From an uncultured Candidatus Saccharibacteria bacterium (GTDB taxonomy: Bacteria > Patescibacteriota > Minisyncoccia > Phycocordibacterales > PALSA-1337), in NCBI GenBank assembly GCA_964543075.1, contig CAZIVT010000002.1:3089-67088 (forward strand): a stretch of 64,000 nt of DNA, in the 5' to 3' direction. Positions 28,606 to 60,115 of the stretch are shown in pieces. The notes under the pieces were generated by a model. That model was not told where the DNA came from, did not search any database, and was given only the letters and a program-made list of their open reading frames with translations. A program made the translations under genes and the position numbers. Numbering within the stretch: the stretch's first letter is position 1; every line of letters begins with the position of its first letter.

Positions 28606-30879
<2,274 letters not shown>

Positions 30880-31609: not shown

Positions 31610-33163
31610 ATGCCAATAGACTTACAAAATCTGACGATCGTGAAAGCGCATGAAGCGCTCAAGAAGGGCGAATTCACTTCGGTCGAATTGACGCAGGCGT
31701 ATCTGGATCAAATTGCCGCACGCAACGGCGACATCTACGCATATCTGGAGGTCTTCGAAGACGCGATAGATCAGGCCAAGGAGGCGGATAAGAAAATACA
31801 AGGATTGATCTCGCCAACGGCGGGGTTGACCCCGCCTGTGGCGGGGTTGAAAGAAGGAAAGATTGAAAGATTGAAAGATTCGGATACAGCCGCGGATTTC
31901 CCGATGTTGCTGGGCATCCCGTGCGCGATCAAAGATAATATCCTCATCAAGGGCCACATCGCCAGTTCAGCGTCCAAGATATTGGAGCGATATCATGCGA
32001 CCTACGATGCCACGGTCATCCGCAAGCTCAAGGAGGCCGGCGCGGTCTTCCTCGGACGCACCAATATGGACGAATTCGCTATGGGCGGCTCGACCGAGAA
32101 CTCCGCCTATGGTCCGACTAGGAATCCGCACGATCTCGAACGCGTTCCAGGCGGGACCTCGGGAGGATCGGCAGCTGTCGTAGCGGCGGACATGGCATTG
32201 TTTGCGCTCGGCTCGGATACAGGAGGATCGATCAGACAACCTTCGAGCTTTTGTGGTGTGGTAGGGATCAAACCGACATACGGCAATGTATCACGATATG
32301 GTCTGATGGCGGCTGTTTCGTCATTTGACCAGATTGGTCCGATAGTCAAGACGGTCGAAGATGCCGAAATAGTATTTGATGTGATCAAAGGGAAGGATGA
32401 GAAGGATGGAACAAGTCAAAATTCTCCCGCCTCCGCTCCACTCCGCGAAGCTTCGGCGGGCAAGCAATTCCCAATTCCCAATTCCCAATTCCAACACAGG
32501 CAAGATCGATTGCGTATAGGTATTCCGAAACACTTCTTGAAAGGAGATGGCATCGATCCGGCGGTCGTGAAGGCGTTCGAATCTTCGGTGGAAGCGCTTA
32601 AAGCTAAGGGATATGAGGTGATCGATATCGAGTTACCGAATATCTCGTATTCATTACCTGCATATTATATTCTGAACTTTGCGGAAATATCGTCCAACAT
32701 GGCGCGCTATGATGGTATGAGATTCGGTCTCCATGTAGATGGCGCGGACGGCATCGGCGACTATTTCGAGACGCGCAAGGCGGGCTTAGGCAAGGAGGTC
32801 ATCCGCCGCATCTTGCTCGGCACCTATGTACTCTCGTCAGGATACTACGACGCCTATTACAATCGCGCCAATGCCGTGCGCCGGATGATCACCGAGGACT
32901 TCACCAAAGCATTTCAGTCAGTCGACGTCATCGCCACGCCGACCACGCCATCTCCTGCGTTCAAACTCGGCGAGAAGACGAGCGATCCGGTGGCGATGTA
33001 TCTGGAAGATATATTCACCGTGACGGCAAACCTGACGGGCATGCCGGCCATCTCCGTGCCGATGAAGACCGACGGATTGCCCGTAGGCATCCAGTTCACC
33101 GCGCCACAGGGAGGGGAGAGCGCTCTATTTGAGATCGGAAAAGAGACGGAGATAGTCGAGTAG
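31610..33163 (+). CDS. gatA: Glutamyl/aspartyl-tRNA amidotransferase subunit A with two extra in-frame segments
   Basis: Amidase signature GGSSGGSAA-like GGTSGGSAAVVAA, GSDTGGSIRQP and KDNI. Confidence 0.95.
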   Translation: MPIDLQNLTIVKAHEALKKGEFTSVELTQAYLDQIAARNGDIYAYLEVFEDAIDQAKEADKKIQGLISPTAGLTPPVAGLKEGKIERLKDSDTAADFPMLLGIPCAIKDNILIKGHIASSASKILERYHATYDATVIRKLKEAGAVFLGRTNMDEFAMGGSTENSAYGPTRNPHDLERVPGGTSGGSAAVVAADMALFALGSDTGGSIRQPSSFCGVVGIKPTYGNVSRYGLMAAVSSFDQIGPIVKTVEDAEIVFDVIKGKDEKDGTSQNSPASAPLREASAGKQFPIPNSQFQHRQDRLRIGIPKHFLKGDGIDPAVVKAFESSVEALKAKGYEVIDIELPNISYSLPAYYILNFAEISSNMARYDGMRFGLHVDGADGIGDYFETRKAGLGKEVIRRILLGTYVLSSGYYDAYYNRANAVRRMITEDFTKAFQSVDVIATPTTPSPAFKLGEKTSDPVAMYLEDIFTVTANLTGMPAISVPMKTDGLPVGIQFTAPQGGESALFEIGKETEIVE

Positions 33164-34729: not shown

Positions 34730-34833
34730 CAAGAGAAATTCAAAAATTAAATTTATCCCGCCTTGGCGGGACAGGCAAAAATCAAAAGTGAAAGCGCAAC
34801 GACAGATATTTTCACTATCAGTATACCCTGACT

Positions 34834-36510: not shown

Positions 36511-36598
36511 AACTCAAAACTCAAAGCTCAAAAGTCAAAAATAGACCAAATCGAAAAATCAGCGTTAGTTTTGCGTTTTGATTTTTGAGCTTTGAGTT
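36511..36598. repeat. Intergenic word-repeat hairpin element H7 (AAACTC/TCAAAA-word family)
   Basis: Left arm AACTCAAAGCTCAAAAGTCAAAA (36518..36540) pairs with right arm GTTTTGATTTTTGAGCTTTGAGTT (36575..36598). Confidence 0.7.
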
Positions 36599-36606
36599 GT
36601 CATTCT

Positions 36607-37632: not shown

Positions 37633-37657
37633 TGGTACAATTACCTGTGTCCGAATC

Positions 37658-40162: not shown

Positions 40163-40167
40163 ATATC

Positions 40168-41985: not shown

Positions 41986-42012
41986 TTTACAGTTTACAAT
42001 TAAAAATTTTTA

Positions 42013-42381
42013 GTGAAAGACGCAATCAGTATCATGAATAAAGCATCCACCATCGTCATAGTCGCGCTCATCCTCATCTCAGCATTCCTTGTCGTGCGCA
42101 TATCGAGCATCTCGGCTGAGCTCGCATCAGCCCGCGCCGAGATCGCCGAGCATACCACCGATAGGCAAGTGGTCGCCTTCCTCGGACTTTTCATAGATCG
42201 GGTTCTCCAGAGCGATGAGCCGGTGGATTTCGATACCAGACTCAAGCTGGAGAATGACGTCCGTGCCATGAATGATCCGAGCATCTTGGCCCAATGGAAC
42301 GCGTTCACCGCGAGCAAGAGCGAGGCCGAGGCCCAAGAAGCGGTCAAAGACCTGCTCGATATGTTGGTCGAGAGGATCTAG
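42013..42381 (+). CDS. Hypothetical membrane-anchored protein
   Basis: 122-aa ORF with one TM segment. Start uncertain (GTG 42013 or ATG 42034). Confidence 0.4.
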   Translation: MKDAISIMNKASTIVIVALILISAFLVVRISSISAELASARAEIAEHTTDRQVVAFLGLFIDRVLQSDEPVDFDTRLKLENDVRAMNDPSILAQWNAFTASKSEAEAQEAVKDLLDMLVERI

Positions 42382-42513
42382 GTATCTGTGGCGTGTCTCG
42401 AGCCATATCACGGAGGAAGTATCTCAAGATGCGAGTATGGCATGCACGCGGCACTATTTGGTATACTTAGAGGCGTCATACAGTACGCTACCCGGCTCGC
42501 TCGGGGGATATTT

Positions 42514-43332
42514 ATGTACATGAAGCACCATACATCTATCCTGCTCGTCTTCATCTGCGCGATTGCCATCATATCGTGGTCGCTTCATGCTACGCATATC
42601 GTCTATGGCGCCGATGAAGTCGTCGATTCTCTCGAGGAGAGAGATACAGGGACAGTCCTCGGTACGAGCACTCCTCCCGTGGAGACAGAGATCATCCAGC
42701 CAGCGACCGTAGTAGATCCCTCAGCGACCAGCACGGAGGCTATAGTAGAGACGGGAGAGACATCAGAGCCACAAGAAGTCCTCGTGGATGACGTTGATAC
42801 TGGTGTCACAGGAGAAGCTACAGATGGATCTGTTCCCGAAGAGTCAGTCGATGATGGGTCAGAAGAGGTCGCTGATGAGGCATCTGACGAAGAGATGGTA
42901 GAGGAAACAGACGAAGAAGCCTATCTAGATCATCCCGGTCTTCCAACTGTCATGACTGTGCTCCCTAAGCCGAGAATATTCACTAAGAGCTTTGTCCTCG
43001 ATCGGGCGGCAGAGCATACGTGCAAAGCCCGCACGTTCAGAGTCGATATTTCAGGAGATGATTTCTCCTGGGTAGATGTCGCTTTTGAGGGTGCAGAAGA
43101 CGCGCTCTATCGCGCCGAGATCGGAGGTCTGCCGCGGGGCATAGAGGTGAGGTTCGTATCGACCGGCGACTATGCTACCGAGGTCAGCGCAGGCTATCAA
43201 GTCATCGATCTAGATATACACAGCGACCCTGGATCACAAAAAGGCAATTTTGACATACCGATCATATTCACCGCCTTGCGAGAAGAGGGGCCATCGTCTG
43301 TGTCATGTCAGTTCAACCTCGTCAACCTATGA
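42514..43332 (+). CDS. Secreted acidic hypothetical protein
   Basis: Start moved to MYMKHHTSILLVFICAIAIISWSLHA (signal peptide). Acidic low-complexity linker followed by a C-terminal globular part. Confidence 0.5.
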   Translation: MYMKHHTSILLVFICAIAIISWSLHATHIVYGADEVVDSLEERDTGTVLGTSTPPVETEIIQPATVVDPSATSTEAIVETGETSEPQEVLVDDVDTGVTGEATDGSVPEESVDDGSEEVADEASDEEMVEETDEEAYLDHPGLPTVMTVLPKPRIFTKSFVLDRAAEHTCKARTFRVDISGDDFSWVDVAFEGAEDALYRAEIGGLPRGIEVRFVSTGDYATEVSAGYQVIDLDIHSDPGSQKGNFDIPIIFTALREEGPSSVSCQFNLVNL

Positions 43333-44318
43333 AGAATCCTGATGCCGCAGCTCCTCGGATCGTTTGGCTGGTCGTCGCGATCTGCTTTTTTGCGACGGCT
43401 AGCGTCGTCCTAGGTTCTCTGCTTTTCGTCAAGACGCGCCCGGACGCTCTGCGTAAGGCCAGCAATCCGTATCCGCTCATCGATTTCGCACGGAGCTTCA
43501 TAGGACAGGAGCACTATCTGACGACTATCCAGCCGCTCCGTGCGCGCATCAAGGAGATGGCCGATGAATTCGAATCCGGATCGGTCTCTGTATATATAGA
43601 GTATCTCAATACGGGCGCGAACATCTCCATCAACCCGGAGCTCTATATATGGCCGGCGAGCTTGACCAAGGTCCCGCTTGCCATGGCCGTCATGAAGAAG
43701 ATCGAGAGAGGGGAATGGAAGCTCAGTAACGAGCTCGTCCTCATGCGTGGTGATGGCGACGACAAGTCCGGGGATAGCGAGAACCCGCTTTCGGAATACC
43801 CGATCGGCACCAGGTTCACCATCGAGAAGCTGCTCGAAGAGCTCCTCATCAACTCTGACAACACTGCTTATTTCATATTCTTACGCAATCTTCACCAGGA
43901 TGATCTCAAGAATGTCATCCAGTCGCTGGGCATGGAGGCCCTATTCACCGAAGAGGGGAAGATCTCGGCCAAAGAATATTCCCGCGTCCTACGGGCGCTG
44001 TATACCGCGAGCTTCCTCTCCAGAGAGCATTCGCAATACATGCTCGAACTGCTCGACAGGGCGACGTTCGACAAATTCATCTCTGGGGCAGTACCTGCAG
44101 AAGTTCCATTTCCTCATAAATATGGCGAGAACAAGCCGCTCGCCGCGTATTCTGATTCGGGTATAGCGTATGTTCCCGATAGGCCGTATATCATATCCGT
44201 CATGGTCCAGGGAGATCCACAGGCTCCTCATGACGTCGAAGCTGAGCGCGTCGCCGCGTTCATGAAAATGCTCTCCAAGGAGGCGTATGACTATTTCAGG
44301 ACCGAGATAAACCGATGA
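43329..44318 (+). CDS. Class-A beta-lactamase-like serine hydrolase with membrane anchor
   Basis: ATGA start/stop overlap with the upstream gene. S-x-x-K (PASLTKV), SDN (INSDNTAY) and a K-x-G-like motif (HKYGEN). Confidence 0.6.
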   Translation: MKNPDAAAPRIVWLVVAICFFATASVVLGSLLFVKTRPDALRKASNPYPLIDFARSFIGQEHYLTTIQPLRARIKEMADEFESGSVSVYIEYLNTGANISINPELYIWPASLTKVPLAMAVMKKIERGEWKLSNELVLMRGDGDDKSGDSENPLSEYPIGTRFTIEKLLEELLINSDNTAYFIFLRNLHQDDLKNVIQSLGMEALFTEEGKISAKEYSRVLRALYTASFLSREHSQYMLELLDRATFDKFISGAVPAEVPFPHKYGENKPLAAYSDSGIAYVPDRPYIISVMVQGDPQAPHDVEAERVAAFMKMLSKEAYDYFRTEINR

Positions 44319-44331
44319 TCCAGAATGAGCC

Positions 44332-47300
44332 ATGAAGCATATATGTATCAGTAGCTCGATTGTGGCACGTCTGACCAGGATATCTACCGGGTTCGTGCTC
44401 ATGCTGGCCATGGTTCTGACCAATATCCCCCTCGGATTCATCGTGACGATCGCGAAGAAATTCGATGACCGCAATGTTGTCGACTTGATGTGGCAGGCCC
44501 AGCGCGACTCGTCGGTCGTGGACTCGTTCGGCGTCGAGCAGGCTCATGCATCGGCAGAGAATACGGTCGATGTCACCATACTGGACGCTACCGACGAGTT
44601 CGGACCCTCTCCATCGGTCGTCTTCACGAGCGACCAAGTGGGATATGTTTTCTACATCGATGCGACTGCGCAGGATCTCGCCTACAGCAAGACCACCAAT
44701 GGCGGCACCAACTGGAGCGCGGCTGTCGTCATCGATACCGCCATCACCGGCTGGACCACCCTCGCCGTCTGGTATGACCAGTGGACGCCAGGAGACACCA
44801 CCGGCACGCGCATCCATATCGCCGCCGCGGACGATGCCGCTGACGACATCTACTACACATATCTCGATACCAACGGCGATACCCTCAAGGGCAGTGTGGT
44901 CGCGGCAGTCCCCGGATCGACTACCTTCACCGAAGCGAGCGATGGTCCCCCGAGCATCACCAAGGGAGCAGGAGGAGCACTCTTCATCTCCGGCAACTTC
45001 ACGAACACCGCCGGTGGCAAAGTCTACAAATCGACCGACGGAGCCGGAAACACATGGTCGGATGCCACGCCGACGAGCTGGAGCACAGTGGCGATCGATC
45101 AGATCCAGCTCTTACCTCTCCTCACCGACAACGACATCATCGCCATCAAGGCCCAGACGGCAGACAACACCATCAGATATCGCATATATGACGAGGTCGG
45201 CGACACCTGGGACGGAGCCTGGTCCGCGAGCATCGCCTCGCTCACCGAGAACACCACCTACGACCAGTGGTTCTCGGCCACCATCAGGAAGTCTACCGGA
45301 GACGTGTACCTCGCCTTCGCCAATCAGACCAACAATGCCGCCAACGATATCGCGTTCTGGAGCTTCGACGAGAGCGCTCGTTCGGGCTTCTCCCAAGGAG
45401 CGGATCTCTTCACCAACGATATCAGCGTGATGATGCCCGCTCCGCTCGTCGACGAGAACACGGGAGACATCTACGTCTCCTACCTCCGCGGCACGCTCAA
45501 CTCCGCCATGAATGTCTACTACAAGAAGTCGACTGATGGGGGCGCGAGTTGGGGCGATGAATCCGCGAAGCTCAACGAATTCGCCGATGACCACAAAGGC
45601 GTGCGTACCAATCTCCTCAGCGGGAGTAGGCTCTACGTCGTCTGGTACAACGACGACCTCAACGACATATATGGAAGTACCATCATGGATGGCGCAGAAG
45701 TGTCGATAGACAACGCCTTGACTGATGGTACCGACGAGTTCGGGCCGTCGCCATCATCGGTATTCATCTCTGATCAAGAAGGCTATGTCTTCTACATCGA
45801 TGCGGGTAACGACCTTGTCTATAGGAAGACCGTCGATGGAGGCAAGAACTGGCTCAATCCGGTGATCGTGAACAATGTCATCACCGGCTGGACCACCCTC
45901 GCCGTCTGGTATGACCAGTGGACGCCAGGAGACACCACCGGCACGCGCATCCATATCGCCGCCGCGGACGATGCCGCTGACGACATCTACTACACATATC
46001 TCGATACCAACGGCGATACCCTCAAGGGCAGTGTGGTCGCGGCAGTCCCCGGATCGACTACCTTCACCGAAGCGAGCGATGGTCCCCCGAGCATCACCAA
46101 GGGAGCAGGAGGAGCACTCTTCATCTCCGGCAACTTCACGAACACCGCCGGTGGCAAAGTCTACAAATCGACCGACGGAGCCGGAAACACATGGTCGGAT
46201 GCCACGCCGACGAGCTGGAGCACAGTGGCGATCGATCAGATCCAGCTCTTACCTCTCCTCACCGACAACGACATCATCGCCATCAAGGCCCAGACGGCAG
46301 ACAACACCATCAGATATCGCATATATGACGAGGTCGGCGACACCTGGGACGGAGCCTGGTCCGCGAGCATCGCCTCGCTCACCGAGAACACCACCTACGA
46401 CCAGTGGTTCTCGGCCACCATCAGGAAGTCTACCGGAGACGTGTACCTCGCCTTCGCCAATCAGACCAACAATGCCGCCAACGATATCGCGTTCTGGAGC
46501 TTCGACGAGAGCGCTCGTTCGGGCTTCTCCCAAGGAGCGGATCTCTTCACCAACGATATCAGCGTGATGATGCCCGCTCCGCTCGTCGACGAGAACACGG
46601 GAGACATCTACGTCTCCTACCTCCGCGGCACGCTCAACTCCGCCATGAACGTCTACTACAAGAAGTCGACTGATGGGGGTGCGAGTTGGGGAAGCGAATC
46701 GGAGAACTTGAACAAGGGCGTCGTCGATGACTTCAAGACTCTACGCGGGAACCTCCTGAGCGAAGATCGTCTCTATGCGGTCTGGTACAACGACGACCTC
46801 AACGACATATATGGAAGTACAGTAAACGACGTCTACGCATGGGAGCAGGCCGCGTATAGATTCTTCAACAGCGCCGCCTCCACCGATGTGGGGTCGGCTT
46901 TGGCGAATCAGGATATTCCGGGAGTCTTGGCGAGCGGCGGAGATACGTTCCGTCTGCGCATGCTTCTGCACAATACGGGACAGGCTCCGATCAATAGTGC
47001 CTCCATGAAGCTTCAGTATGCTGAGAAGTCAGGCACATGCGATACGGCTTTTTCGGGCGAGAGCTATGTCGATGTCACTTCATCGACTGATATAGCCTAT
47101 GATGTGGCCAACTCTCCGGCTGACGGAGATGCTTTGACATCCAACGCCTCAGACCCGACGCTCGGCAACAGTGTCGTCAATCAGACCTATGAAGAAGCCA
47201 ATCCCTTTACCAATACACAGGCCATAGTGCCATCGGGACAGGATGGTAAGTGGGATTTCGCGCTGATCGACAACGGCGCGCCGCCCGGTACGAGCTATTG

Positions 47301-48162
47301 TTTCCGTATCGTCTATACTGATGGCAATCTCATCAATCAGTATAGCGTCATCCCTGAGGTCTCTACCGCCTCCGGAGGCAATTCTCCACCCGTCGCTTCG
47401 GATGTCTCCATCGATTCTGATGCGGCCTCAGTGACGCTCATAGAAAGCACGACCAAGGACGTGGTCTGTGTCGCTACAGTCACTGATACGGATGGGTATA
47501 CAGATATTTCATCGGTCACGGCGGATCTCTTTCGGACATCACAGACTGTCAGTTCCGGACTCGATGACAACGATCACTATCAACTCTCAGGGGATAGTCA
47601 ATGCGTGCCTTCCGGTGGAGCGGGGAACAGTGAGACGTATACATGCACGTTCGCGGTCCAGTACTTCGCCGATGCTACGGATACTGGTTCGCCCAATGCG
47701 GCCGATGATTGGACGTGTCGAGTCATGCCCAGCGATTCAGCAGGAGAAGGGACGAGCGCGAGCGATACGATAGAAGTCGACTCACTGTTCGCATTGGAAG
47801 TCACGGCATCCATCGACTACGGGTCTCTCGATCCTGATAGCGATACGGGCTCGACCAATCAACAGGTGACGGTGACTAACACTGGCAATCGCGATATGGA
47901 TCCGCAGGTATCCGGAGGAGATATGGTTTCCGGCATCAATTCTATAGCCGTAGGACAACAAAAATACGCGTCTGCAGGATTCACCTATACGAGCGGTGGA
48001 ACGACGCTCTCCACGACACCGGCGACGCTCGACCTGGCCCTTCCTCAGCGCACCGCCGCGGTCGTCGACGCGCTCGTGTACTGGGGTATCGGCATACTGG
48101 ATGGGACTCCGGGAGGCGGATATGCCGGAACCAACACATTCACCGCTACGTCAGGTATATAA
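44332..48162 (+). CDS. Giant surface protein: two BNR/Asp-box beta-propeller units plus a C-terminal adhesin-like module
   Basis: Asp-box motifs (SKTTNGGTNWS, YKSTDGAGNTWS, KKSTDGGASWG) repeat in two ~379-aa units. The C-terminal ~300 aa are paralogous to the product of 48295..49209. Confidence 0.8.
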   Translation: MKHICISSSIVARLTRISTGFVLMLAMVLTNIPLGFIVTIAKKFDDRNVVDLMWQAQRDSSVVDSFGVEQAHASAENTVDVTILDATDEFGPSPSVVFTSDQVGYVFYIDATAQDLAYSKTTNGGTNWSAAVVIDTAITGWTTLAVWYDQWTPGDTTGTRIHIAAADDAADDIYYTYLDTNGDTLKGSVVAAVPGSTTFTEASDGPPSITKGAGGALFISGNFTNTAGGKVYKSTDGAGNTWSDATPTSWSTVAIDQIQLLPLLTDNDIIAIKAQTADNTIRYRIYDEVGDTWDGAWSASIASLTENTTYDQWFSATIRKSTGDVYLAFANQTNNAANDIAFWSFDESARSGFSQGADLFTNDISVMMPAPLVDENTGDIYVSYLRGTLNSAMNVYYKKSTDGGASWGDESAKLNEFADDHKGVRTNLLSGSRLYVVWYNDDLNDIYGSTIMDGAEVSIDNALTDGTDEFGPSPSSVFISDQEGYVFYIDAGNDLVYRKTVDGGKNWLNPVIVNNVITGWTTLAVWYDQWTPGDTTGTRIHIAAADDAADDIYYTYLDTNGDTLKGSVVAAVPGSTTFTEASDGPPSITKGAGGALFISGNFTNTAGGKVYKSTDGAGNTWSDATPTSWSTVAIDQIQLLPLLTDNDIIAIKAQTADNTIRYRIYDEVGDTWDGAWSASIASLTENTTYDQWFSATIRKSTGDVYLAFANQTNNAANDIAFWSFDESARSGFSQGADLFTNDISVMMPAPLVDENTGDIYVSYLRGTLNSAMNVYYKKSTDGGASWGSESENLNKGVVDDFKTLRGNLLSEDRLYAVWYNDDLNDIYGSTVNDVYAWEQAAYRFFNSAASTDVGSALANQDIPGVLASGGDTFRLRMLLHNTGQAPINSASMKLQYAEKSGTCDTAFSGESYVDVTSSTDIAYDVANSPADGDALTSNASDPTLGNSVVNQTYEEANPFTNTQAIVPSGQDGKWDFALIDNGAPPGTSYCFRIVYTDGNLINQYSVIPEVSTASGGNSPPVASDVSIDSDAASVTLIESTTKDVVCVATVTDTDGYTDISSVTADLFRTSQTVSSGLDDNDHYQLSGDSQCVPSGGAGNSETYTCTFAVQYFADATDTGSPNAADDWTCRVMPSDSAGEGTSASDTIEVDSLFALEVTASIDYGSLDPDSDTGSTNQQVTVTNTGNRDMDPQVSGGDMVSGINSIAVGQQKYASAGFTYTSGGTTLSTTPATLDLALPQRTAAVVDALVYWGIGILDGTPGGGYAGTNTFTATSGI
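44742..45512 (+). repeat. Internal tandem repeat, copy A (identical core)
   Basis: By eye, base-for-base identical to 45879..46649 (offset 1137 bp = 379 codons). The first mismatch is at 45513 (T versus C). Confidence 0.85.
45879..46649 (+). repeat. Internal tandem repeat, copy B (identical core)
   Basis: See copy A. The flanks of the two units are clearly diverged. Confidence 0.85.
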
Positions 48163-48294
48163 TCTCTCGTGCGGGTCGGATGGATCGAGGTGCTGTGGAT
48201 AATCAACTCGTCCCAAGAAAAAGCGCATGATATACTATGTGCGCATTTCGAGAGAGATACTCATAGTGCACCCTTTTTAAACACTCCGTATTTT

Positions 48295-49209
48295 ATGAAA
48301 ACAAAAAAAGAGACTATCCATTCGATCGTCGCGTCAGGCGTGAGCGCCATCATGATACTATCGGCAGTCATCGTCCATGCCGATACGACGAGTACCTCTG
48401 TCACCGTGGGCAACGCCGCGCCTTCTATATCAGCCACGACCTTCAATAGCGGCTCAGCGATCGTGCTCACTGAGAACACCACGACGGCTGTATACGCGAC
48501 CACGACAGTCACAGATAGCAACGGATGTGGGAGTATCTACGGAGTCACCGCCAACATTCGCCGATCCGGCGTCGCCGCGGCGAGCTGTGACCAGGTCGGA
48601 GAAGCAGACAACAACAGTTGCTATCCGGTCCTCACGTGTACTGTAGAAGCAGGAACATGTACGGGGGGATCTGATACAGCGGCCAACTACGTATGTTCGA
48701 CATCGCTCCAGTTCTACGCTGATCCGACAGACTCAGGTAGCTTCAGTGCCCAAAACTGGACTGTCGACCTGATAGCCGGAGACGGGGTCGCTACGACTAC
48801 TGAGGCTGCCAACGCGAGCGTCGAGCTCAACTCTCTCGCGGCGCTCAATGTCGATGCTTCATTGGCATACGGCACGATCGCTGCCAATACCGATACAGGA
48901 GCTCTCAACTCGACTACCACGGTCACCAATACCGGCAATACCAACATAGACCCCGATATTTCAGGGACCAATATGACCTCAGGAGGAGATACGATAGCGG
49001 TAGGGAACCAGGAGTACAGCAGTTCGATATTCACGTACGGATCAGGTACGGACCTCTCGACTTCGCCCACGAGTCTCGACCTGACATTGGCCAAACCTAC
49101 ATCAGCGAGTGCGGTGACCGACGATGTTTCCTGGGGTATAGCCATACCGGGCGGAACTCCTCCGGGAAACTATACAGGCACCAACACATTCACGGCTGTT
49201 GCAAACTAG
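48295..49209 (+). CDS. Secreted two-domain adhesin/fibre-subunit-like protein
   Basis: Start moved to MKTKKETIHSIVASGVSAIMILSAVIVHA. It aligns by eye with the C-terminus of the giant protein (…SLQFYADPTDSGS…, …LNVDASLAYGTI…, …WGIAIPGGTPPGNYTGTNTFTAV). Confidence 0.65.
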   Translation: MKTKKETIHSIVASGVSAIMILSAVIVHADTTSTSVTVGNAAPSISATTFNSGSAIVLTENTTTAVYATTTVTDSNGCGSIYGVTANIRRSGVAAASCDQVGEADNNSCYPVLTCTVEAGTCTGGSDTAANYVCSTSLQFYADPTDSGSFSAQNWTVDLIAGDGVATTTEAANASVELNSLAALNVDASLAYGTIAANTDTGALNSTTTVTNTGNTNIDPDISGTNMTSGGDTIAVGNQEYSSSIFTYGSGTDLSTSPTSLDLTLAKPTSASAVTDDVSWGIAIPGGTPPGNYTGTNTFTAVAN

Positions 49210-49248
49210 CCCTGATTCGGGTAGCCTTGCGATGTTAGGATCACGCTC

Positions 49249-50121
49249 GTGAATCTATCACGTCTCATCATCGGCATAGCCATAGTATCAGCATCCGTCG
49301 TGGGATGGGCGTCTTCCACGTATGCAGGGTTTGGTGTATCTCCAGGTCAGATCCAGGAGGACAAGCTCGTCCCTGGGGCGCTCATGGAAAAGACCATATA
49401 TCTAGTCCAAGGGACCCCTACTGAGGATTTGCCGATACGCGTATCAGTAGAATCTCCCAATATCCAAGATTGGATCACTATCCCGGATGGGCCGGATCAG
49501 GTCATCCCCGCGGGGCAACAGCAGTTCCCGGTTAGACTATCGATCCATGTTCCAGAGGATGCTTCGCTCGGGATATATCGCGCGTTCGTCAGAGTGACGA
49601 CGATCCCGCCCAAGGCCGAAGGGTCGCAGATCACCATCGCGCTCGGCGCCAAGGTGACCGTGGATCTCACTGTCGGCGATGATGTCGTATCAGAGTTCTC
49701 GGTCAAATCTATCAAGATCCAAGACATACATGAACGCCAAGATCCGCGCGTATCAGTGACGATCGTCAATACAGGCAACGTGCCTGCCGCTCCTGAGAAT
49801 GCCTCGTTCGAGCTATTCAACAAGTATGGTCAGATACGTCTCGCATACGCCGAGAACGATGATTTCGAAGAGACTCCGCCATTCCAGGAACGGACGATAG
49901 ATCTCCGATTCCCCCTCGATGTCCGGCTTGGTATCGGCGAGTACTGGGGCCATGTTAAAATCTATGATGATGGAATCGTCGTCAAAGAGCTCAAAACAAT
50001 CTTCAATGTCACCGAACGGACATGGTTGGAGCGCTACATGTATGCGCTCATCGGATCCGGCATCGGCATCATCATCTTGCTCCTCATCATCGTGGGGTAT
50101 CTCGCTCGCAAACGTGCGTAG
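49249..50121 (+). CDS. Cell-surface protein with two beta-sandwich-like halves and a C-terminal TM anchor (DUF916/DUF3324-like architecture)
   Basis: GTG start, signal peptide, GFGVSPGQIQEDKLVPGALMEKTIYLV, a second half VSVTIVNTGNVPAAPENASFELF, and a C-terminal TM plus basic tail LARKRA. Confidence 0.55.
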   Translation: MNLSRLIIGIAIVSASVVGWASSTYAGFGVSPGQIQEDKLVPGALMEKTIYLVQGTPTEDLPIRVSVESPNIQDWITIPDGPDQVIPAGQQQFPVRLSIHVPEDASLGIYRAFVRVTTIPPKAEGSQITIALGAKVTVDLTVGDDVVSEFSVKSIKIQDIHERQDPRVSVTIVNTGNVPAAPENASFELFNKYGQIRLAYAENDDFEETPPFQERTIDLRFPLDVRLGIGEYWGHVKIYDDGIVVKELKTIFNVTERTWLERYMYALIGSGIGIIILLLIIVGYLARKRA

Positions 50122-51229
50122 CATCCTCGCATCTATTCTCATAGCGGCGTCCCTCGTGTCTCTATGTCCCGCGCAGTATCTCTATGCCGCGACGTCAGAG
50201 GTCACGGTGACCGTCATTGTGGCAGAGTGTTCTGATGGCATAGACAACGATGGCAATAGCCTCATCGACTATCCGGATGATCCAGGATGTACGTCAGCAC
50301 TAGATCTATACGAGGATACGATCGCAGCATGTGCGGATGGTATAGACAACGATAGCGATGGATCGACCGACTTCCCGGCGGATATCGGATGTGATTCTGC
50401 GGGAGACGATGATGAGTACAACGCTCCCTCGACCCCTCCGAGCGGGGGATCGGGAGGGAGTAGTGGTGGAGGCAGTAGAGGCGACGACACACCTCCTCCA
50501 TCCTCCCAATCTAGCGTGATCATCAAGGGTGTCGCCTATCCAGGTAGCGATGTCCATGTGCTCAAGGATGGACAGTCTGTCGCTATTTCGCCGGCAGGTC
50601 CAGATGCCAAGTTCGAGATACAAGTCTCAGGTCTGGGACCGGGTACCTATACGTTCAGCGTGTGGGCTTCCGATTCCAATGGAGTCCGTTCGACGCTCTA
50701 TCCCTTCACGGTGACGCTCTCACCCAGTATAACCGCCGTCGTGAGCGGTGTATACTTGCCGCCTACCTTGAGCATCGGCTTTTCCTCCGTACGGCGTGGC
50801 GATCCACTGACGATCATCGGGCAGACCAGGCCGTCAGCTAGCGTCTCAGTCGTGACGCACTCTGAGAGTGAGGTCATCGGACAGGCCGTCGCCGATGCTC
50901 AGGGTCTCTGGAGCTACGTGCTCGATACGCTTCAGCTCGAGTATGGCGATCATATGACCCAGGCGCGCTCCAAGGCGGGTGCCGAGATCAGCATGATGTC
51001 GAAGTCCCTCATCTTCAAAGTTGCGTCACAATCCATCCCGCTTACCTCCGCAGAGGGTCTCATGGGCGACTTCAATCATGACAACAGGGTCAATCTAGCC
51101 GACTTCAGCATCATGTTATATTGGCATGGTCGTCCGCTCACGGCTTCATCCCCCGGAGTCGATCTCAATGGTGACGGCAAACTCGATCTGACCGATTTCA
51201 GCATATTCGCCTATCATTGGACGGGATAG
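50114..51229 (+). CDS. Secreted protein with Cys/Asp calcium-binding-type repeats, an Ig-like region and a C-terminal dockerin
   Basis: GTG start overlapping the upstream stop. CSDGIDNDGNSLIDYPDDPGC and CADGIDNDSDGSTDFPADIGC repeats. Dockerin pair DFNHDNRVNLADFSIM and DLNGDGKLDLTDFSIF. Confidence 0.7.
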   Translation: MRSILASILIAASLVSLCPAQYLYAATSEVTVTVIVAECSDGIDNDGNSLIDYPDDPGCTSALDLYEDTIAACADGIDNDSDGSTDFPADIGCDSAGDDDEYNAPSTPPSGGSGGSSGGGSRGDDTPPPSSQSSVIIKGVAYPGSDVHVLKDGQSVAISPAGPDAKFEIQVSGLGPGTYTFSVWASDSNGVRSTLYPFTVTLSPSITAVVSGVYLPPTLSIGFSSVRRGDPLTIIGQTRPSASVSVVTHSESEVIGQAVADAQGLWSYVLDTLQLEYGDHMTQARSKAGAEISMMSKSLIFKVASQSIPLTSAEGLMGDFNHDNRVNLADFSIMLYWHGRPLTASSPGVDLNGDGKLDLTDFSIFAYHWTG

Positions 51230-51252
51230 GTTCTACGATATCTCACATCATC

Positions 51253-52179
51253 ATGAATACCAGAACACCAAACTCGTATAGATCTACCGTGACAGCTTTC
51301 ATGCTCGTCGCGCTCTATGTTCTCATCCCCGCTCCTGCTGACGCGGCCGAATCATGGTTCGTATCGGATATGATCGAGGTCGGATCTGAGTCTCACATCT
51401 TCGTCATGATGAGTTCGGACGATCCGATCAATGCTGTCGAGATGTCTATACACGCGCCAGATGGTCTGCGCATAGTGGATGCGTCAGACGGAGATTCGGT
51501 CGTCAATTTCTGGGTCGAACGGCCGATGGTCTCAGAGGACATGAGGTCAGTCAGGTTCGCAGGCATCATCCCAGGAGGGTTCAGCGGCGCAGAAGGGAAG
51601 GTCATCGACCTGAGCGTCATAGCCGATCGGCCAGGGCAATACACGATGTCGTTCGATGCATCTTCCAAGCTCTATATGAATGATCCGACAGCGGCAGGGA
51701 TCGAGATCCAGGTCCGACCTTCTCGAATCATCGCGAGCGTCGATGTGGCCACGTCATCGGCCGCGATACAGTCTGACACAGACGTCGATCCTCCCGAGCC
51801 GTTCACTCCGGTCTATGCGCGCATCTCCGATGGGGATGAGGATTTCTGGGTGGTCTCATTCGAGACGCAAGACAAAGGATCAGGAGTCTATCTCTACCAG
51901 GTCGCCGAGACGCGCAGGCCAGTAGATATGGATGATCGTTTCGCGCTCGCGCGGCTCACGTGGACGACGACGTGGTCGCCGTATCGACTATCGGACCAGG
52001 AGACTGTTTCGCATATCTATGTCAAAGCCGTCGATCGCAAGGGCAATGTCCGATTCGGTCATCTCGATCCACTGCGACATATCCCATGGTATCGAGGCCC
52101 GATCCAGTATATACTTATCCTGACGGTATCAATCGCGCTCCTTGTCTTCCTGTGGTCGCGTCGGAGAGCGGTGCGGTGA
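51253..52179 (+). CDS. Membrane-anchored cohesin-like domain protein
   Basis: Signal peptide, a domain aligning with the cohesin-like N-domain of the next gene (…INAVEMSIHAPDGLRIVDASDGDSVVNFWV…), and a C-terminal TM YILILTVSIALLVFLW. Confidence 0.55.
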   Translation: MNTRTPNSYRSTVTAFMLVALYVLIPAPADAAESWFVSDMIEVGSESHIFVMMSSDDPINAVEMSIHAPDGLRIVDASDGDSVVNFWVERPMVSEDMRSVRFAGIIPGGFSGAEGKVIDLSVIADRPGQYTMSFDASSKLYMNDPTAAGIEIQVRPSRIIASVDVATSSAAIQSDTDVDPPEPFTPVYARISDGDEDFWVVSFETQDKGSGVYLYQVAETRRPVDMDDRFALARLTWTTTWSPYRLSDQETVSHIYVKAVDRKGNVRFGHLDPLRHIPWYRGPIQYILILTVSIALLVFLWSRRRAVR

Positions 52180-52192
52180 CGTCCATATCTCT

Positions 52193-53956
52193 ATGCTGAG
52201 AGCGATTCTTGCGTATACCAGATCTACTAGCCGACATACGTCGCGTATGGCGGCTGTCGTAGCGCTCATGGCGCTCGTCTCTATCGGCTATGTCTCTCCA
52301 TCTCGAGCCGAGGCCGCGGTGCTGTCTATCGCTCCGTCAGACGCATCGGCGACATATACGGTGGGTCAGGTATTCTCTGTACCAGTCCTCGTCTCGACAG
52401 TGAGCGGCATCCCAGTCAATGCCGTATCAGGCACGATCTCATTCCCGACCAATTCTCTCCAAGTCGTCTCGCTCGATACGTCCGGAACATTCGTGGATTT
52501 CTGGATAAGCAAGCCCGTGTTCTCCAATAGCGAGGGGACTATCAATTTCGAAGGAGGCTCCTACAATCCAGGATTCCTCGGTTCGGGAGGGAAGATAGTC
52601 AATATCCTATTCAAAGCAAAGGCTGTCGGTCCGGCGACGGTCTCATTTTTGAGCTCAGCAGCTCTGGCCAATGACGGGCGGGGAACCAACATCCTCATCA
52701 AGGCCAATCCGGCAACGCTCAATATCGTCCCTTCTTCTGCTCTCGTTCCTGATGTAGCCAATACAGTCGAAAGCCAAGCACTCTCTGCGTATTCGCCGAC
52801 TCACCCTGATCAGACCAAGTGGTACAATCTGACCACGGCAAAAGTCGCTTGGCGTCTCCCGACAGGGACAACTGCCGTGAGGACGCGCCTCGACAGGAGT
52901 CCGTCGACCATACCGTCGATCATGTACTCTCCTCCGATCTCTGAGAAAGAGGTAGAAATATCCTCTGACGGTGTCTGGTATTTCCATGTACAAGCTCGCA
53001 ATGACAGCGCGTGGGGTCCAGTCACTCACTACAAGTTGCAGATCGATACGACATCCCCCGATCCATTTTCCATCGAATTCCCCCATGGTTCCACATCTGA
53101 TGATCCGCGCCCCGTCATACTCTTCAATACCACCGATGGACTCTCTGGCATGAGTCACTACGATGTAGTGATCGGTGATTTGGATCTGGTACACGTAGAT
53201 TACAAATCTGTCGATAGCAATCCATATGCCATACCTGATCAGGATCCTGGAGATCAGGTAATCAAAGTAGTCGCGTATGATGTCGCAGGCAATGCCGCGA
53301 TCGCCACGAGCACGTTCACTATCACCGGTCTCAAGCAGCCTGAGTTCGACGCGTTCCCCGAGATCCTCACAGAAGGAGACAGCCTCCAATTTCTCGGTAC
53401 CACGTATCCATACGCGACCTTGGTGGTCACCATCACAGATAGCGTCGGGCAACCTGTCACACAAGAAGCAGTGGCGAACTCAGCTGGCAGATTCATCATG
53501 ATATGGCAGAAATATCTCAACAAAGGCCTGTATACAATGACGTCACATGTCGTCGATGAACGGGGAGCCAAGAGCGTTTCTATCGACGAACGACTGATCA
53601 CTGTCAGGCCACCTGCGCTCACGCGCATTGGCGTGCCGATACTCAACTACATGACGTTCCTCGCCATCGTCATCGGTGGCATCGCGGCGATCGTTCTCTG
53701 GTCCTGGTACCTGCTCTATCATGTGCGCAAATTGAATCGCAAGCTCTCTAGCCGTCTTCGCGCCGCTGATGAAAGCGTCCATACTCAGTTCAAGAAGCTG
53801 CAAAGATCGGTCAGCCAACAGGTCAAGGCGCTCGAAGCCGCTTCCGAGCGCCGGACGCTGACCCCCGAGGAATCTCGACTGATCGACGGGCTCCGCGATG
53901 CCATAGACGAGGCGGAAGAAGTTGTGGAACGAGAAGTCAAAGACATCGGGAAGTAG
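52193..53956 (+). CDS. Cohesin-domain surface protein with Ig-like repeats, a TM anchor and a cytoplasmic coiled coil
   Basis: VLSIAPSDASATYTVGQVFSVPVLVST...VNAVSGTISFPTNSLQVVSLD...GTINFEGG is a cohesin-like pattern. TM segment FLAIVIGGIAAIVLWSWYLLY. Confidence 0.65.
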   Translation: MLRAILAYTRSTSRHTSRMAAVVALMALVSIGYVSPSRAEAAVLSIAPSDASATYTVGQVFSVPVLVSTVSGIPVNAVSGTISFPTNSLQVVSLDTSGTFVDFWISKPVFSNSEGTINFEGGSYNPGFLGSGGKIVNILFKAKAVGPATVSFLSSAALANDGRGTNILIKANPATLNIVPSSALVPDVANTVESQALSAYSPTHPDQTKWYNLTTAKVAWRLPTGTTAVRTRLDRSPSTIPSIMYSPPISEKEVEISSDGVWYFHVQARNDSAWGPVTHYKLQIDTTSPDPFSIEFPHGSTSDDPRPVILFNTTDGLSGMSHYDVVIGDLDLVHVDYKSVDSNPYAIPDQDPGDQVIKVVAYDVAGNAAIATSTFTITGLKQPEFDAFPEILTEGDSLQFLGTTYPYATLVVTITDSVGQPVTQEAVANSAGRFIMIWQKYLNKGLYTMTSHVVDERGAKSVSIDERLITVRPPALTRIGVPILNYMTFLAIVIGGIAAIVLWSWYLLYHVRKLNRKLSSRLRAADESVHTQFKKLQRSVSQQVKALEAASERRTLTPEESRLIDGLRDAIDEAEEVVEREVKDIGK

Positions 53957-53995
53957 GCCTCTTGGAATTTCCGTCATTTGGTGTATACTCCACCC

Positions 53996-55873
53996 ATGCG
54001 ACGGAAGAAGCGCCCGAATGGCCGGAATAGCGTGAAGAAAAGTTCAGCGAAAAGCCATTCGCGGGGCGCTTCAAAGCCCTCTCGTCCGAGACATGCTCAC
54101 AAGTACATCTTCGTCATCGGCGGCGTGATGTCCGGCGTCGGCAAGGGTATCGCCACCTCTTCCATAGGCACGCTGCTCGCCGCCAAGGGCTGGACGGTCA
54201 ATCTGGCCAAGGTCGACCCCTATCTCAATGTCGATGCTGGCACCATGAATCCCACTGAGCATGGGGAAGTCTTCGTGCTCGATAGCGGCCTGGAGACCGA
54301 TCAGGACATGGGGAACTATGAGCGCTTCCTCAACCGCGACCTCACGGCCGATGACTATATCACGAGCGGCATGGTCTATCGCCACGTCATCGAGAAGGAG
54401 CGCGCGCTCGGCTACGGCGGCAAGTGCGTCGAGGCCATCCCGCATATCCGCGACGAGATCGTGCGACGCTTCGAGCATAGCGCCAAGGTCAACAAGTCCG
54501 ACATCTCGATCATCGAGATCGGCGGCACCGTCGGCGACTATCAGAACATCATGTTCATCGAAGCGGCTCGTGTGCTCAAGATCCGCCATCCGCAGGATGT
54601 CATCTTCATCATGGTGTCGTATCTGCCGGTGCCGGGCGCGCTCGGCGAGATGAAGACGAGGCCGACCCAGAACGCCGTGCACCAGCTGGCCTCATACGGA
54701 GTGACCGCCGATATCATCATCGCGCGCGCCAGCATCCCGCTCGACGAGCGCCGCAAGGAGAAGATCGCTACCGCTTGCAACTTGCCGGCCACACGGGTGG
54801 TTTCTGCTCCGGATATCAGGAGCATCTATGACGTCCCGGGCAATTTCGAGCATGACCGTCTCGCCGATACTGTGCTCGAAGCGCTCCATGTGCCCGCGGG
54901 CGAGCGATCGGGTCCGCTCATCGATGACCCACTCATCTCCATGAAGTCGTGGAAGAAGATGGCCGCCGGCGTCGGCCGACCGCTCGATGAGGGCGAGCGT
55001 CCGCTCAATATCGCTATCGTCGGCAAATATTTCAATACGGGGGATTTCGTCCTCACGGATGCATATTTATCGGTGCTCGAAGCGATCAAATTCTCTGGTC
55101 ATGAGGTCAAGGTCAAGCCGATCATACATACGATCAATGCGAGAGACTTCGAAGAGAAAACTCAAAACTCAAAACTCAAAAGTCAAAAATCCGGTGCAGA
55201 TTCGGACCCTGGTCTTTTTCCGTATGCCCAACTCGACGAGATGGACGGCGTGATCGTGCCCGGCGGGTTCGGCGAGAGCGGTATCGAGGGCAAGCTCAAC
55301 GTCATCAGGTATTGCCGCGAGAATGGCATCCCGTACTTCGGCCTCTGCTACGGCATGCAGCTCATGACCATCGAGTACGCGCGCAATGTCCTCGGTCTCT
55401 CCGGCGCGCAGACGGCCGAGATCGATCCGGCCGCGCCGCATCTCATCATCGATATCATGCCCGATCAGAAGAAGAAGCTCCAGGACGCCGACTATGGCGG
55501 CTCGATGCGCCTCGGTCTCTATCCGGCCAAATTGCTCAAAGGATCGATCGCTCAAGAGGCTTATTCGCAGTTCGCCGGCAAGCCTCTGCCCAAACCGACG
55601 ACCATGATCAAGGAGCGCCACCGCCATCGCTACGAGGTCAATCCCAAATATGTCGAGCGGCTAGAAAAAGGCGGCCTCGTTTTTTCTGGAAAATCACCCG
55701 ACGGTCGTCTATGCGAGATCGCAGAATTGCCGCGAGATCGACATCCCTTTTTCCTCGGTACGCAGTTCCATCCGGAGTTCCTGGCGCGTCCGCTCCTGCC
55801 GCATCCGCTCTTCACCGAGTTCCTCAGGGCGGCAAAATGGAGGAAAAGATCTCAAATAGAGAAAGGGAATTAA
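53996..55873 (+). CDS. pyrG: CTP synthase with a basic N-terminal extension and one extra in-frame segment
   Basis: KYIFVIGGVMSGVGKG, a GATase domain with GLCYGMQ and HRHRYEVN. Start set at the ATG 6 nt after TATACT. Confidence 0.93.
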   Translation: MRRKKRPNGRNSVKKSSAKSHSRGASKPSRPRHAHKYIFVIGGVMSGVGKGIATSSIGTLLAAKGWTVNLAKVDPYLNVDAGTMNPTEHGEVFVLDSGLETDQDMGNYERFLNRDLTADDYITSGMVYRHVIEKERALGYGGKCVEAIPHIRDEIVRRFEHSAKVNKSDISIIEIGGTVGDYQNIMFIEAARVLKIRHPQDVIFIMVSYLPVPGALGEMKTRPTQNAVHQLASYGVTADIIIARASIPLDERRKEKIATACNLPATRVVSAPDIRSIYDVPGNFEHDRLADTVLEALHVPAGERSGPLIDDPLISMKSWKKMAAGVGRPLDEGERPLNIAIVGKYFNTGDFVLTDAYLSVLEAIKFSGHEVKVKPIIHTINARDFEEKTQNSKLKSQKSGADSDPGLFPYAQLDEMDGVIVPGGFGESGIEGKLNVIRYCRENGIPYFGLCYGMQLMTIEYARNVLGLSGAQTAEIDPAAPHLIIDIMPDQKKKLQDADYGGSMRLGLYPAKLLKGSIAQEAYSQFAGKPLPKPTTMIKERHRHRYEVNPKYVERLEKGGLVFSGKSPDGRLCEIAELPRDRHPFFLGTQFHPEFLARPLLPHPLFTEFLRAAKWRKRSQIEKGN

Positions 55874-60039: not shown

Positions 60040-60064
60040 GTAATTGAAAAAGTTTTTCAATTAC
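60040..60064. promoter_or_regulatory. Putative Zur/Fur box 1
   Basis: GTAATTGAAAAAGTTTTTCAATTAC is a perfect 25-bp palindrome, 43 bp upstream of the CooC-like start. Confidence 0.6.
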
Positions 60065-60093
60065 CTACGGAGGAATATAGCTTATCTTCCTTC

Positions 60094-60115
60094 TAATTGC
60101 AAATCTTTTTCAATT
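60094..60115. promoter_or_regulatory. Putative Zur/Fur box 2
   Basis: TAATTGCAAATCTTTTTCAATT matches box 1 at 19 of 25 positions. It is immediately upstream of TATATT and the Fur-family ATG. Confidence 0.5.

Follow-up and report, generated by a model that had tools for sequence, protein, structure and literature searches.

An in-frame heptanucleotide array in the CTP synthase gene of a Saccharibacteria genome, probably derived from the genome's own spacer repeats

How does a sequence that matches the arm of an intergenic hairpin come to be translated inside an essential enzyme? The question is raised by pyrG, the gene for CTP synthase (CTPS), in a stretch of 64,000 nucleotides (nt) from an uncultured Candidatus Saccharibacteria bacterium (GTDB lineage Bacteria; Patescibacteriota; Minisyncoccia; Phycocordibacterales; PALSA-1337; GenBank assembly GCA_964543075.1, contig CAZIVT010000002.1, positions 3,089 to 67,088). 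This whole stretch is called the window, and positions are counted from its first letter. A sequence-only reading of the window had described an insert in pyrG as a near-exact copy of one arm of the hairpin between ftsE and ftsX. The predicted PyrG protein is 100% identical to the database protein P0001, and because P0001 is 625 aa long, the true start of the gene is probably position 53996. The insert consists of head-to-tail copies of one 7-nt unit, a heptanucleotide simple-sequence repeat (SSR), to which Tandem Repeats Finder (TRF) assigned, at 55157-55188, a period of 7, 4.6 copies, 96% matches and 0 indels; the period-7 structure was also scanned independently of TRF. The array is translated as KTQNSKLKSQKSG, 13 residues corresponding to PyrG residues 394-406.

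The match to the spacer was confirmed by a mismatch search and by BLAST. The 32 nt at 55159-55190 (AACTCAAAACTCAAAACTCAAAAGTCAAAAAT) are identical to 36511-36542 at 31 of 32 bases (BLAST, 96.9% over 32 nt). With up to three mismatches allowed, these are the only two matching sites in the window, and none was found in 100 dinucleotide shuffles, a null that overstates the significance because both sequences are arrays of one 7-nt unit. The spacer copy is one arm of a hairpin of 88 nt (36511-36598; RNA folding energy -31.4 kcal/mol, z -5.9) located between ftsE (35819-36508, ABC_tran) and ftsX (FtsX_ECD and FtsX domains), which likely starts with the ATG at 36607. As had been proposed, the pyrG segment is nearer to the left arm of this hairpin, with 31 of 33 positions in common, than to the reverse complement of the right arm (27 of 33).

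The array also has ends in common with an in-frame insert in the DNA ligase gene ligA. The 10-mer AAAAATCCGG has only two occurrences in the whole window, one at the 3' end of each insert (29461 in ligA, 55185 in pyrG), where 0.08 would be expected; the ligA-like ending reported for the pyrG insert is thus restricted to those two places. The 3' ends of both inserts contain the 11-mer CAAAAATCCGG, which includes this 10-mer, and their 5' ends have AGA[G/T]AAAACTCAAAACTCAAA in common at 20 of 21 positions.

In composition, the pyrG insert is spacer-like and unlike the coding sequence of this genome. Its GC content is 0.31 vs 0.58 for the whole gene, and its GC content at third codon positions is 0.23 vs 0.74. 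Lys is encoded four times, each time by AAA (genome fraction 0.30), and Gln twice, both times by CAA (genome fraction 0.26), a combination with a chance of ~5e-4 under the genome's own codon fractions; the rare codons ACT and AGT are present as well. The array is a single arm, with no inverted partner found within the loop, and RNA folding gave no structure and no stem (z +0.9). The two strands of the repeat differ in coding capacity. (AAAACTC)n can be read in all three frames without a stop codon, whereas TGA appears in each frame of its complement (GAGTTTT)n, and both the actual right arm and the whole ftsE-ftsX hairpin have stops in every frame. Because the A-rich strand alone is stop-free, only one arm is found in the gene, and in one orientation.

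We then compared 120 aligned PyrG homologues, all from Paceibacterota/Patescibacteria. The sequence-only reading had placed the additional residues in the linker before the glutamine amidotransferase (GATase) core. The extra length holds, at 16 to 18 residues, but the segment is situated inside the Pfam GATase domain (358-617), in a loop ahead of the GGFG motif. The stretch from IIHT to GGFG has 51 residues in the window protein, 35-36 in P0002, P0004, P0006 and P0009, and as few as 33 in the shortest of the homologues. Compared with M. tuberculosis PyrG, the loop is longer by 17 residues, and the CTP synthases in the PDB also lack the array. Measured between the conserved DFE and LDEMDG, the loop has 25 residues in the window and 7-35 in the tabulated relatives, with no alignable sequence. 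Among P0002-P0009, each 81-86% identical to the window PyrG, the array is absent from P0002, P0004, P0006 and P0009, with loops of 9-10 residues, and P0003, P0005, P0007 and P0008 have unrelated loop sequences of other lengths. In a neighbour-joining tree computed from 518 conserved columns with the loop masked, members of the window clade are 88-91% identical to the window protein over those columns, and their loops have 25, 35, 10, 29, 9, 20, 9 and 9 residues, sister pairs being unlike. The array is therefore not common to orthologues, and the site is a hotspot of rapid turnover. The same segment in orthologous proteins would have spoken against an insert; it is absent from the closest insert-free PyrG orthologues. 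A second hypervariable PyrG site, before ERHRHRYE (window 55541-55636), has 22-63 residues and turns over likewise; its peptides in many lineages are of heptamer type (KLKSKISNLK, TQNSKFEIRNSK, ILNLKSQKSNL), and the window PyrG has the common 32-residue form there.

The DNA of the loop site was compared in eight genomes. The empty-site orthologue L012 contains no AAAACTC seed, and comparison with it revealed no direct repeat flanking 55157-55195. Other lineages have arrays or hairpins of their own at this site (Table 1). In both L015 and L090, two distinct sites within pyrG contain (AAAATCC)n (93% over 29 nt in L015), and in L089 the sequence CAAATCACAAA is common to its two pyrG sites. Arrays of one genome are alike, each genome using a unit of its own at several of its loci. 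The pyrG inserts of L013, L014 and L088 had no matches above chance in the spacers of their own contigs, which at only 5-12 kb are uninformative on this point. These comparisons also bear on an assembly or binning artefact, in which a chimeric join of low-complexity reads would have put the spacer repeat into pyrG. The contig is metagenome-assembled, the sole database copy, P0001, comes from one contig, and low-complexity repeats are trouble spots for assemblers. We nevertheless regard an artefact as hardly credible: the frame and the ORF are kept, with conserved PyrG sequence on both sides, analogous in-frame arrays are located at the same site in the independent assemblies L013, L015, L089 and L090, and three independent assemblies (L006, L073 and L074) agree exactly in an array of this kind in RadA.

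The ftsE-ftsX spacer has 18-29 nt and no hairpin in L013 and L015, and ~100 nt without a heptamer hairpin in L090; as judged from these relatives, both window copies, the pyrG array and the ftsE-ftsX arm, are lineage-specific. The genes prfB-ftsE-ftsX-pyrG are adjacent in L013, L015, L090 and the P0008 contig, and ~16 kb lie between ftsX and pyrG in the window. Local template switching between neighbouring loci, suggested by this adjacency, was rejected because L012 has the same cohesin-domain gene adjoining pyrG upstream as the window, yet no insert; no ftsX was found within 10 kb upstream of pyrG in L012, and its ftsX locus was not located. The intervening part of the window (37598-53956) encodes large, mostly unannotated proteins (Peptidase_S74, CarboxypepD_reg, cohesin/Big_13, and an ORF of 1276 aa). 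This last ORF (44332-48162) contains a direct duplication of 942 nt with 95.6% identity (44742-45680 vs 45879-46820).

To assess recurrence elsewhere, we scanned public sequence with the 23-mer core common to both window copies, CTCAAARCTCAAAAGTCAAAAAT. Public genomes contained 11 core loci in 596 Gb, in two Saccharibacteria, Kerfeldbacteria, Amesbacteria, Patescibacteria, Stahlbacteria, Ignavibacteriaceae, Saprospiraceae, a gammaproteobacterial metagenome-assembled genome, Scytonema and Anabaena, and metagenomes contained 24 further stretches with the core. After removal of orthologous duplicates, ~28 independent loci remained besides the two in the window. The core is inside an ORF of at least 90 codons at 14 of ~28-30 independent loci, with the A-rich strand always sense and never antisense. 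A Pfam scan of ten core-bearing ORFs gave domain hits in nine, namely IleRS, LeuRS, RecG, RadA, RsmH, a MiaB-like radical-SAM enzyme, a GT1 glycosyltransferase, a GATase_3 protein and a methyltransferase. Spacer-hairpin copies with a T-rich partner arm were found in L002, L075-L077, L079 and L083. Both cyanobacterial copies are in spacers, with an exact match of 34 nt in the Anabaena azotica SJ-1 chromosome (L010) and of 30 nt in Scytonema sp. HK-05 (L004). The core stands beside other short repeats in two genomes (CCCCTAA-type heptamers in L005, CCCCAT-rich repeats in L004), and the metagenomic IleRS of L084 (1-3183, -) combines an in-frame heptamer array with a His_Phos_1 domain inserted mid-synthetase. 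In viral contigs, (AAAACTC)n and (AAAATTC)n arrays are many and typically flank a GC hairpin; (AAAACTC)n is found at 48 loci, with 85 matches when overlapping registers are counted separately. The observed order of the four A4NTC units in the window is CTCAAAACTCAAAAGTCAAAAAT, of which CTCAAAAGTCAAAACTCAAAAAT is another permutation; the G-then-A order was seen in 0 of the 85 viral matches, and AAAACTCAAAAGTCAAAAAT had zero matches in 2.9 million viral contigs.

From these results we consider it probable that a spacer-type array, already formed in the genome's own pool of repeats, was imported in frame into pyrG and has been kept there as a tolerated passenger. An A-rich heptanucleotide array with units AAAANTC would have existed before it entered pyrG, and one in-frame copying step from the genome's own pool of simple-repeat modules would have placed it in the gene. 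The donor modules would be the arms of intergenic hairpins and the flanks of small GC hairpins, and the recipient a structurally permissive, fast-changing surface loop of the PyrG glutaminase domain. The copying between A-rich arrays may have proceeded by ectopic recombination or gene conversion, or by template switching guided by microhomology; that a discrete element transposed seems less likely. Two passive filters would govern persistence, namely the stop-free A-rich strand, which can be kept in the sense orientation only, and a loop that may tolerate almost any sequence. A common origin within the genome is favoured because two core copies in 64 kb are so improbable, the expected number of second copies being ~1e-6 per 64 kb (from 11 per 596 Gb), or ~1e-3 with a 1000-fold enrichment in the Candidate Phyla Radiation (CPR). 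It is further favoured because the ligA and pyrG inserts have the same non-repeat 3' tail, because L015, L090 and L089 reuse their own units at several loci, and because both window copies are lineage-specific. The spacer-like composition, the constant sense orientation of the A-rich strand, the permissive loop and the in-frame modules of ligA and gatA speak for import as well.

The array could alternatively have grown in place at pyrG by slippage, its likeness to the spacer being convergent and A4NTC heptamers acting as a mutational attractor; we give this a small though real chance of being right. The array is a near-perfect tandem repeat, 23-34-mers from it recur in unrelated phyla, its unit forms arrays at the viral loci described above, and at the same codon relatives have different heptamer arrays. 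The native flank TTCGAA(A/G)AG is similar to the unit TTCAAAA, and bacterial heptamer SSRs are reported to be over-represented, with polymerase slippage proposed as the cause (PMC4692102). However, every 7-nt step would shift the frame of an essential single-copy gene, so stepwise growth would have to pass through null alleles; import of a block, or conversion of a length that is a multiple of three, avoids these alleles and is favoured over slippage for that reason. The empty-site orthologue lacks a seed from which the array could have grown. Slippage also does not predict the tail AAAAATCCGG in both ligA and pyrG, nor the G-then-A order in both pyrG and the spacer, an order absent from every viral match, and it leaves the second copy in 64 kb as improbable as calculated above.

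A different explanation is a discrete non-autonomous mobile element, similar to a MITE (miniature inverted-repeat transposable element), a repetitive extragenic palindrome (REP) or a Rickettsia palindromic element (RPE), moved for instance by the IS200-like Y1 enzyme of the window and spreading horizontally among CPR and other phyla. The spacer copy is MITE-like, an 88-nt hairpin with inverted arms of 33 nt, the pyrG and ligA copies have both ends in common, the core is present verbatim at ~28 independent loci in many phyla, and by our count the strict array ends in ...AAAAGTCAAAAAT in roughly half of these; a Y1_Tnp gene with flanking palindromes is also encoded at 24072-24659. On the other hand, we found no conserved termini, target duplication or longer consensus across the 30 core loci: their flanks showed no conservation above 60% beyond A-richness, and unit number varies. 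The coding copies contain one arm only, without an inverted repeat, and would be incomplete elements; the palindromes flanking the Y1 gene (CCGCAGGGTAGACCTGCGT) are unrelated to the heptamer arrays; and the zero count of AAAACTCAAAAGTCAAAAAT in viral contigs leaves no obvious viral vector. Because conserved termini, target duplication and a consensus are absent, we do not regard the pyrG array as a discrete MITE- or RPE-type element, an origin that we consider improbable. The sequence-only reading had taken the match as direct evidence for one mobile or recombining sequence populating both spacers and coding regions. The presence of the same sequence class in both stands; the directness of the evidence for a mobile element does not, given the identical string of 32-34 nt in unrelated genomes and the lack of fixed termini. 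We regard a pool of recombining sequences as likely and a discrete mobile element as unlikely.

A broader proposal is that (AAAACTC)n-AAAAGTC-AAAAAT is a micro-sequence common to Patescibacteria and less so to other phyla, placed in spacers as hairpins and in frame in PyrG, LigA, IleRS, LeuRS, RecG, RadA, RsmH and the MiaB-like enzyme by a possibly enzyme-mediated or horizontal process, such that the 32-34-nt identity among pyrG, Anabaena and metagenomic genes would reflect common descent and not convergence. We hold this to be speculative and rather unlikely.

Several points weigh against import from the genome's own pool. The pyrG array has exact matches of 32-34 nt at seven loci (five independent sites), including Anabaena azotica and metagenomic GT1, RecG, IleRS and LeuRS genes, which is better than its match to the same-genome spacer; because the identical string exists in unrelated genomes, high identity is no proof of copying between the window loci. 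What looks like a shared pool could also be produced by a mutational bias peculiar to the genome. The actual donor may be located outside the 64 kb, and the direction of transfer may have been either way. No donor-recipient junction signature, in the form of extended microhomology or duplication, is visible at the two window loci. L013, L015 and L090 have other A-rich heptamer arrays at the same codon position, so an older array already present there may have undergone conversion, instead of a vacant position being filled; insertion into an empty site is inseparable from replacement or conversion because other lineages hold other arrays there. Finally, the neutrality of the array is assumed in that reading.

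The effect on the protein was assessed with an AlphaFold2 model built with an alignment of 54 sequences, in which the fold as a whole is confident (mean predicted local distance difference test, pLDDT, 79). Confidence falls to 64 at residues 391-400 and to 50 at 401-410, with residues 406-412 below 50, and residues 393-405 are drawn as a low-confidence helix between strands 380-387 and 424-427. The array is probably a flexible 13-residue excursion rich in Lys, Ser, Gln and Asn. In the alignment, the loop corresponds to KTKFHEAW of yeast CTPS (7rmo), which is the alpha-helical insert of eukaryotic enzymes; that insert is solvent-exposed, and its histidine, residue H360 of the yeast and H355 of the human enzyme, makes the interface of CTPS filaments (PMC8641951). 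A selected gain of function, either a new interaction surface such as a CTPS assembly contact or a regulatory or phase-variable A-rich tract, would be in keeping with this shared position, with the low-confidence helix, and with the persistence of the orthologous L015/L090 array through point changes only. We consider such a gain very improbable: the loop is unconserved in close relatives, with 9 to 35 residues in sister lineages, its codon usage is unadapted, the same string is found in many unrelated proteins, and the region has no RNA structure. Rapid turnover, lack of conservation and unadapted codons argue instead for a tolerated passenger, and the array would be neutral and not an adaptation. 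The PyrG of the window also has a basic, low-complexity N-terminal extension of 35-41 residues (window 53978-54100, MRRKKRPNGRNSVKKSSAKSHSRGASKPSRPRHA...), without counterpart in solved CTP synthases and with a model pLDDT below 50.

In-frame modules are present in three housekeeping genes of the window: pyrG, ligA (two) and gatA (two); those of ligA and gatA have no counterpart in their PDB homologues. Coordinates are given in Table 1. The first ligA insert adds 20 residues relative to E. coli LigA (2owo) and folds as an RNA hairpin (dG -34.4, z -4.8), and its intergenic relative (34736-34779) matches 29392-29435 with 93% identity over 44 nt and reads as a terminator on the minus strand only. 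Of the two in-frame spacer-type modules of ligA (28609-30879, +), the second falls where the protein does not align with E. coli LigA (query 585-623 vs chain 533-537). In gatA (31610-33163, +), the module at 31805-31880 accounts, by our count, for ~12 residues more than A. aeolicus GatA.

Table 1. Positions of the pyrG array, of related modules in the window, and of the corresponding pyrG site in relatives
Feature	Position	Strand	Description
pyrG (CTP synthase) ORF	53978..55873	+	Pfam CTP_synth_N 2e-98, GATase 3e-31; PDB CTP synthases E ~1e-134
In-frame heptanucleotide array in pyrG	55157..55195	+	AAAACTC x3, AAAAGTC, AAAAATCC, GG; 39 nt
Whole variable loop, PyrG glutaminase domain (E-KTQNSKLKSQKSGADSDPGLFPYAQ)	55154..55231	+	between conserved DFE and LDEMDG
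Left A-rich arm of ftsE-ftsX spacer hairpin	36511..36543	+	31/32 to pyrG array
Right T-rich arm of ftsE-ftsX spacer hairpin	36566..36598	+	inverted repeat, 33 nt, 82% complementary
ligA in-frame insert	29389..29470	+	AAAACTCAAAACTCAAA, two 28-nt GC-hairpin units, CAAAAATCCGG
Second in-frame 7-nt array in ligA, (AAATCCG)n	30416..30459	+	x6
Intergenic relative of ligA module	34736..34779	+	downstream of tRNA; A-rich heptamers, CCCGCCTTGGCGGG hairpin, A-rich heptamers
gatA in-frame module	31805..31880	+	two 21-nt GC-hairpin units, then (GAAAGATT)x4
gatA (CAATTCC)x4 array	32465..32492	+	reads QFPIPNSQF; loop 13 residues longer than PDB homologue
pyrG loop site in L015			AAAGTTCAAAATCCAAAATCCAAAGTTCAAAATAG
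pyrG loop site in L090			orthologous variant of L015 array, point changes only
pyrG loop site in L013			AAGAATCAACAATCGAAAACCAATAATCC
pyrG loop site in L014	L014 6579-6668		complete in-frame hairpin, GGGTATAGAGGGAAGGGTGTAGGAG ... CTCCACCCTGTACCCTACACCC; arms GGGTNNA-type heptamers; read as GEGYRGKGVGDQKVANAQSSTLYPTPY
pyrG loop site in L088			GC stem-loops, read as GVTPAKAGVQ and SRLRGND

Further spacer hairpins with tandem 7-9-mer arms, besides the one between ftsE and ftsX (36511-36598), were found at 14833-14913, 18526-18612, 33881-33982, 35728-35801 and 60042-60115. Each of these long AT-rich spacer hairpins has a unit of its own (AATAGTCA, AAATTGA, TACGAATA, CTAATTT and others). A pure terminator role is unlikely because they are situated between convergent, tandem and divergent genes alike. 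The ftsE-ftsX hairpin was not called as an intrinsic terminator in a scan of 34700-36700, which called only 34754-34773 on the minus strand; a canonical intrinsic terminator was rejected for both the hairpin and the stemless pyrG array, and an Rfam search over the whole window returned seven tRNAs and nothing else. Other pairs of spacer segments from distant loci are 84-92% identical over 26-47 nt (33202-33248 vs 20834-20880; 33937-33973 vs 31612-31576; 35776-35801 vs 15678-15653; 24872-24904 vs 23479-23511), and because of these pairs the sharing of spacer modules extends beyond the AAAACTC family.

The Y1_Tnp ORF (24072-24659, -; 195 aa) matches the IS200-like Y1 transposase family (PF01797, 32.6 bits vs a cutoff of 23) and is flanked by a perfect palindrome of 38-44 nt, CCGCAGGGTAGACCTGCGT/ACGCAGGTCTACCCTGCGG. 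Palindromes are located at 23282-23325, 24045-24082, 24517-24538, 24669-24691, 24818-24857, 27526-27565 and 28565-28583, and the same palindrome is dispersed between the genes of a type IV pilus/pilin cluster (T2SSE, T2SSF, prepilin peptidase and N_methyl pilins). Judged by sequence features, the transposase ORF and the palindromes look like a candidate unit of REPs with a REP-associated tyrosine transposase (REP-RAYT, 'REPtron') in a CPR genome.

Among known systems, the pyrG array works most like RPEs and other small repeats inserted in frame, and as a sequence it is a bacterial heptanucleotide SSR. According to PMC3184786, RPEs, Bordetella repetitive elements (BRE) and the pneumococcal RUP (repeat unit of pneumococcus), BOX and SPRITE elements are, like the pyrG array, intergenic-type repeats found in frame in genes. 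That paper describes RPEs, after Ogata et al. 2000, as palindromic elements of 105-146 bp with family-wide identity. As with those RPEs, the pyrG segment is an in-frame insertion into a conserved gene, absent from orthologues and with the ORF intact; it occupies a tolerated position in a housekeeping gene and adds a peptide without destroying the protein, and the inserts of ligA and gatA, as well as the pyrG of L014, include hairpin-forming relatives. Unlike RPEs, it is a tandem 7-nt array of 39 nt representing one arm, with no hairpin, no conserved termini and no extended consensus comparable to a palindrome of 100-150 bp, and its string crosses phyla, whereas RPEs are placed within one genus in that account. 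MITEs, REPs and REP doublets forming hairpins (REPINs), with their RAYTs, are likewise small non-coding hairpin repeats dispersed in spacers (PMC3184786, PMC3733652, PMC3116915). However, the pyrG copy has no terminal inverted repeats, target-site duplication or conserved ends of the MITE kind, and the heptamer arrays lack the GTAG/CGTC tag, GC-rich palindrome, fixed inverted termini and target duplication; with 31% GC, the pyrG array is non-palindromic and unlike the palindromes flanking Y1_Tnp.

Bacterial heptamer SSRs are described as over-represented, present in distant phyla and unexplained (PMC4692102, PMC4679880); examples are cyanobacterial heptamers (Calothrix/Nostoc), GGGAATC in Xanthomonas and GGGGA(T/C)T in Nostoc (PMC4692102), and TAACTGA repeats in Beggiatoaceae, Cyanobacteria and Bacteroidetes (PMC4679880). 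They resemble the arrays described here in their period of 7, their mostly intergenic location, the frequent inverted pairs, and the recurrence of one unit across distant phyla without a known transfer mechanism. They differ in being mainly intergenic, with proposed regulatory or G-quadruplex roles, whereas the pyrG array is A-rich, in frame in an essential gene, and has its sequence in common with hairpin arms of the same genome. Tandem repeats of Borgs create intrinsically disordered protein regions, and their units in ORFs are perfect and all divisible by three (PMC9879509). These repeats are likewise A-enriched, present in both intergenic regions and ORFs, recent, fast-evolving, genome-specific and prone to encode disordered low-complexity peptides; in contrast, the unit here is of 7 nt and the arrays are short (3-6 units) and imperfect. 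With a 7-nt unit, the frame is kept by total length only and the peptide repeats every three units. We found no paper on heptamer arrays or in-frame spacer repeats in CPR genomes in the literature searched.

The pyrG array provides a concrete, datable case in which spacer repeats of a reduced genome (Paceibacterota/CPR) became part of the protein sequence of an essential enzyme, and the intermediate forms, namely the spacer hairpin, the half-copy in a gene and the hairpin modules of ligA and gatA, are all present in one window of 64 kb. Its 7-nt unit sets it apart from the triplet-compatible Borg repeats and from ordinary low-complexity regions. Such inserts inflate apparent divergence and may confuse orthology, alignment trimming and gene calling in CPR; and because the exact 23-34-mer recurs across phyla, short repeat identity without a proper null is no evidence of transfer or contamination. 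The hotspot in the PyrG loop shows possible raw material for interface-forming inserts such as that of eukaryotic CTPS (PMC8641951). If the proposal of a widespread micro-sequence were true, reduced genomes would regularly gain new protein loops from non-triplet 7-nt repeats.

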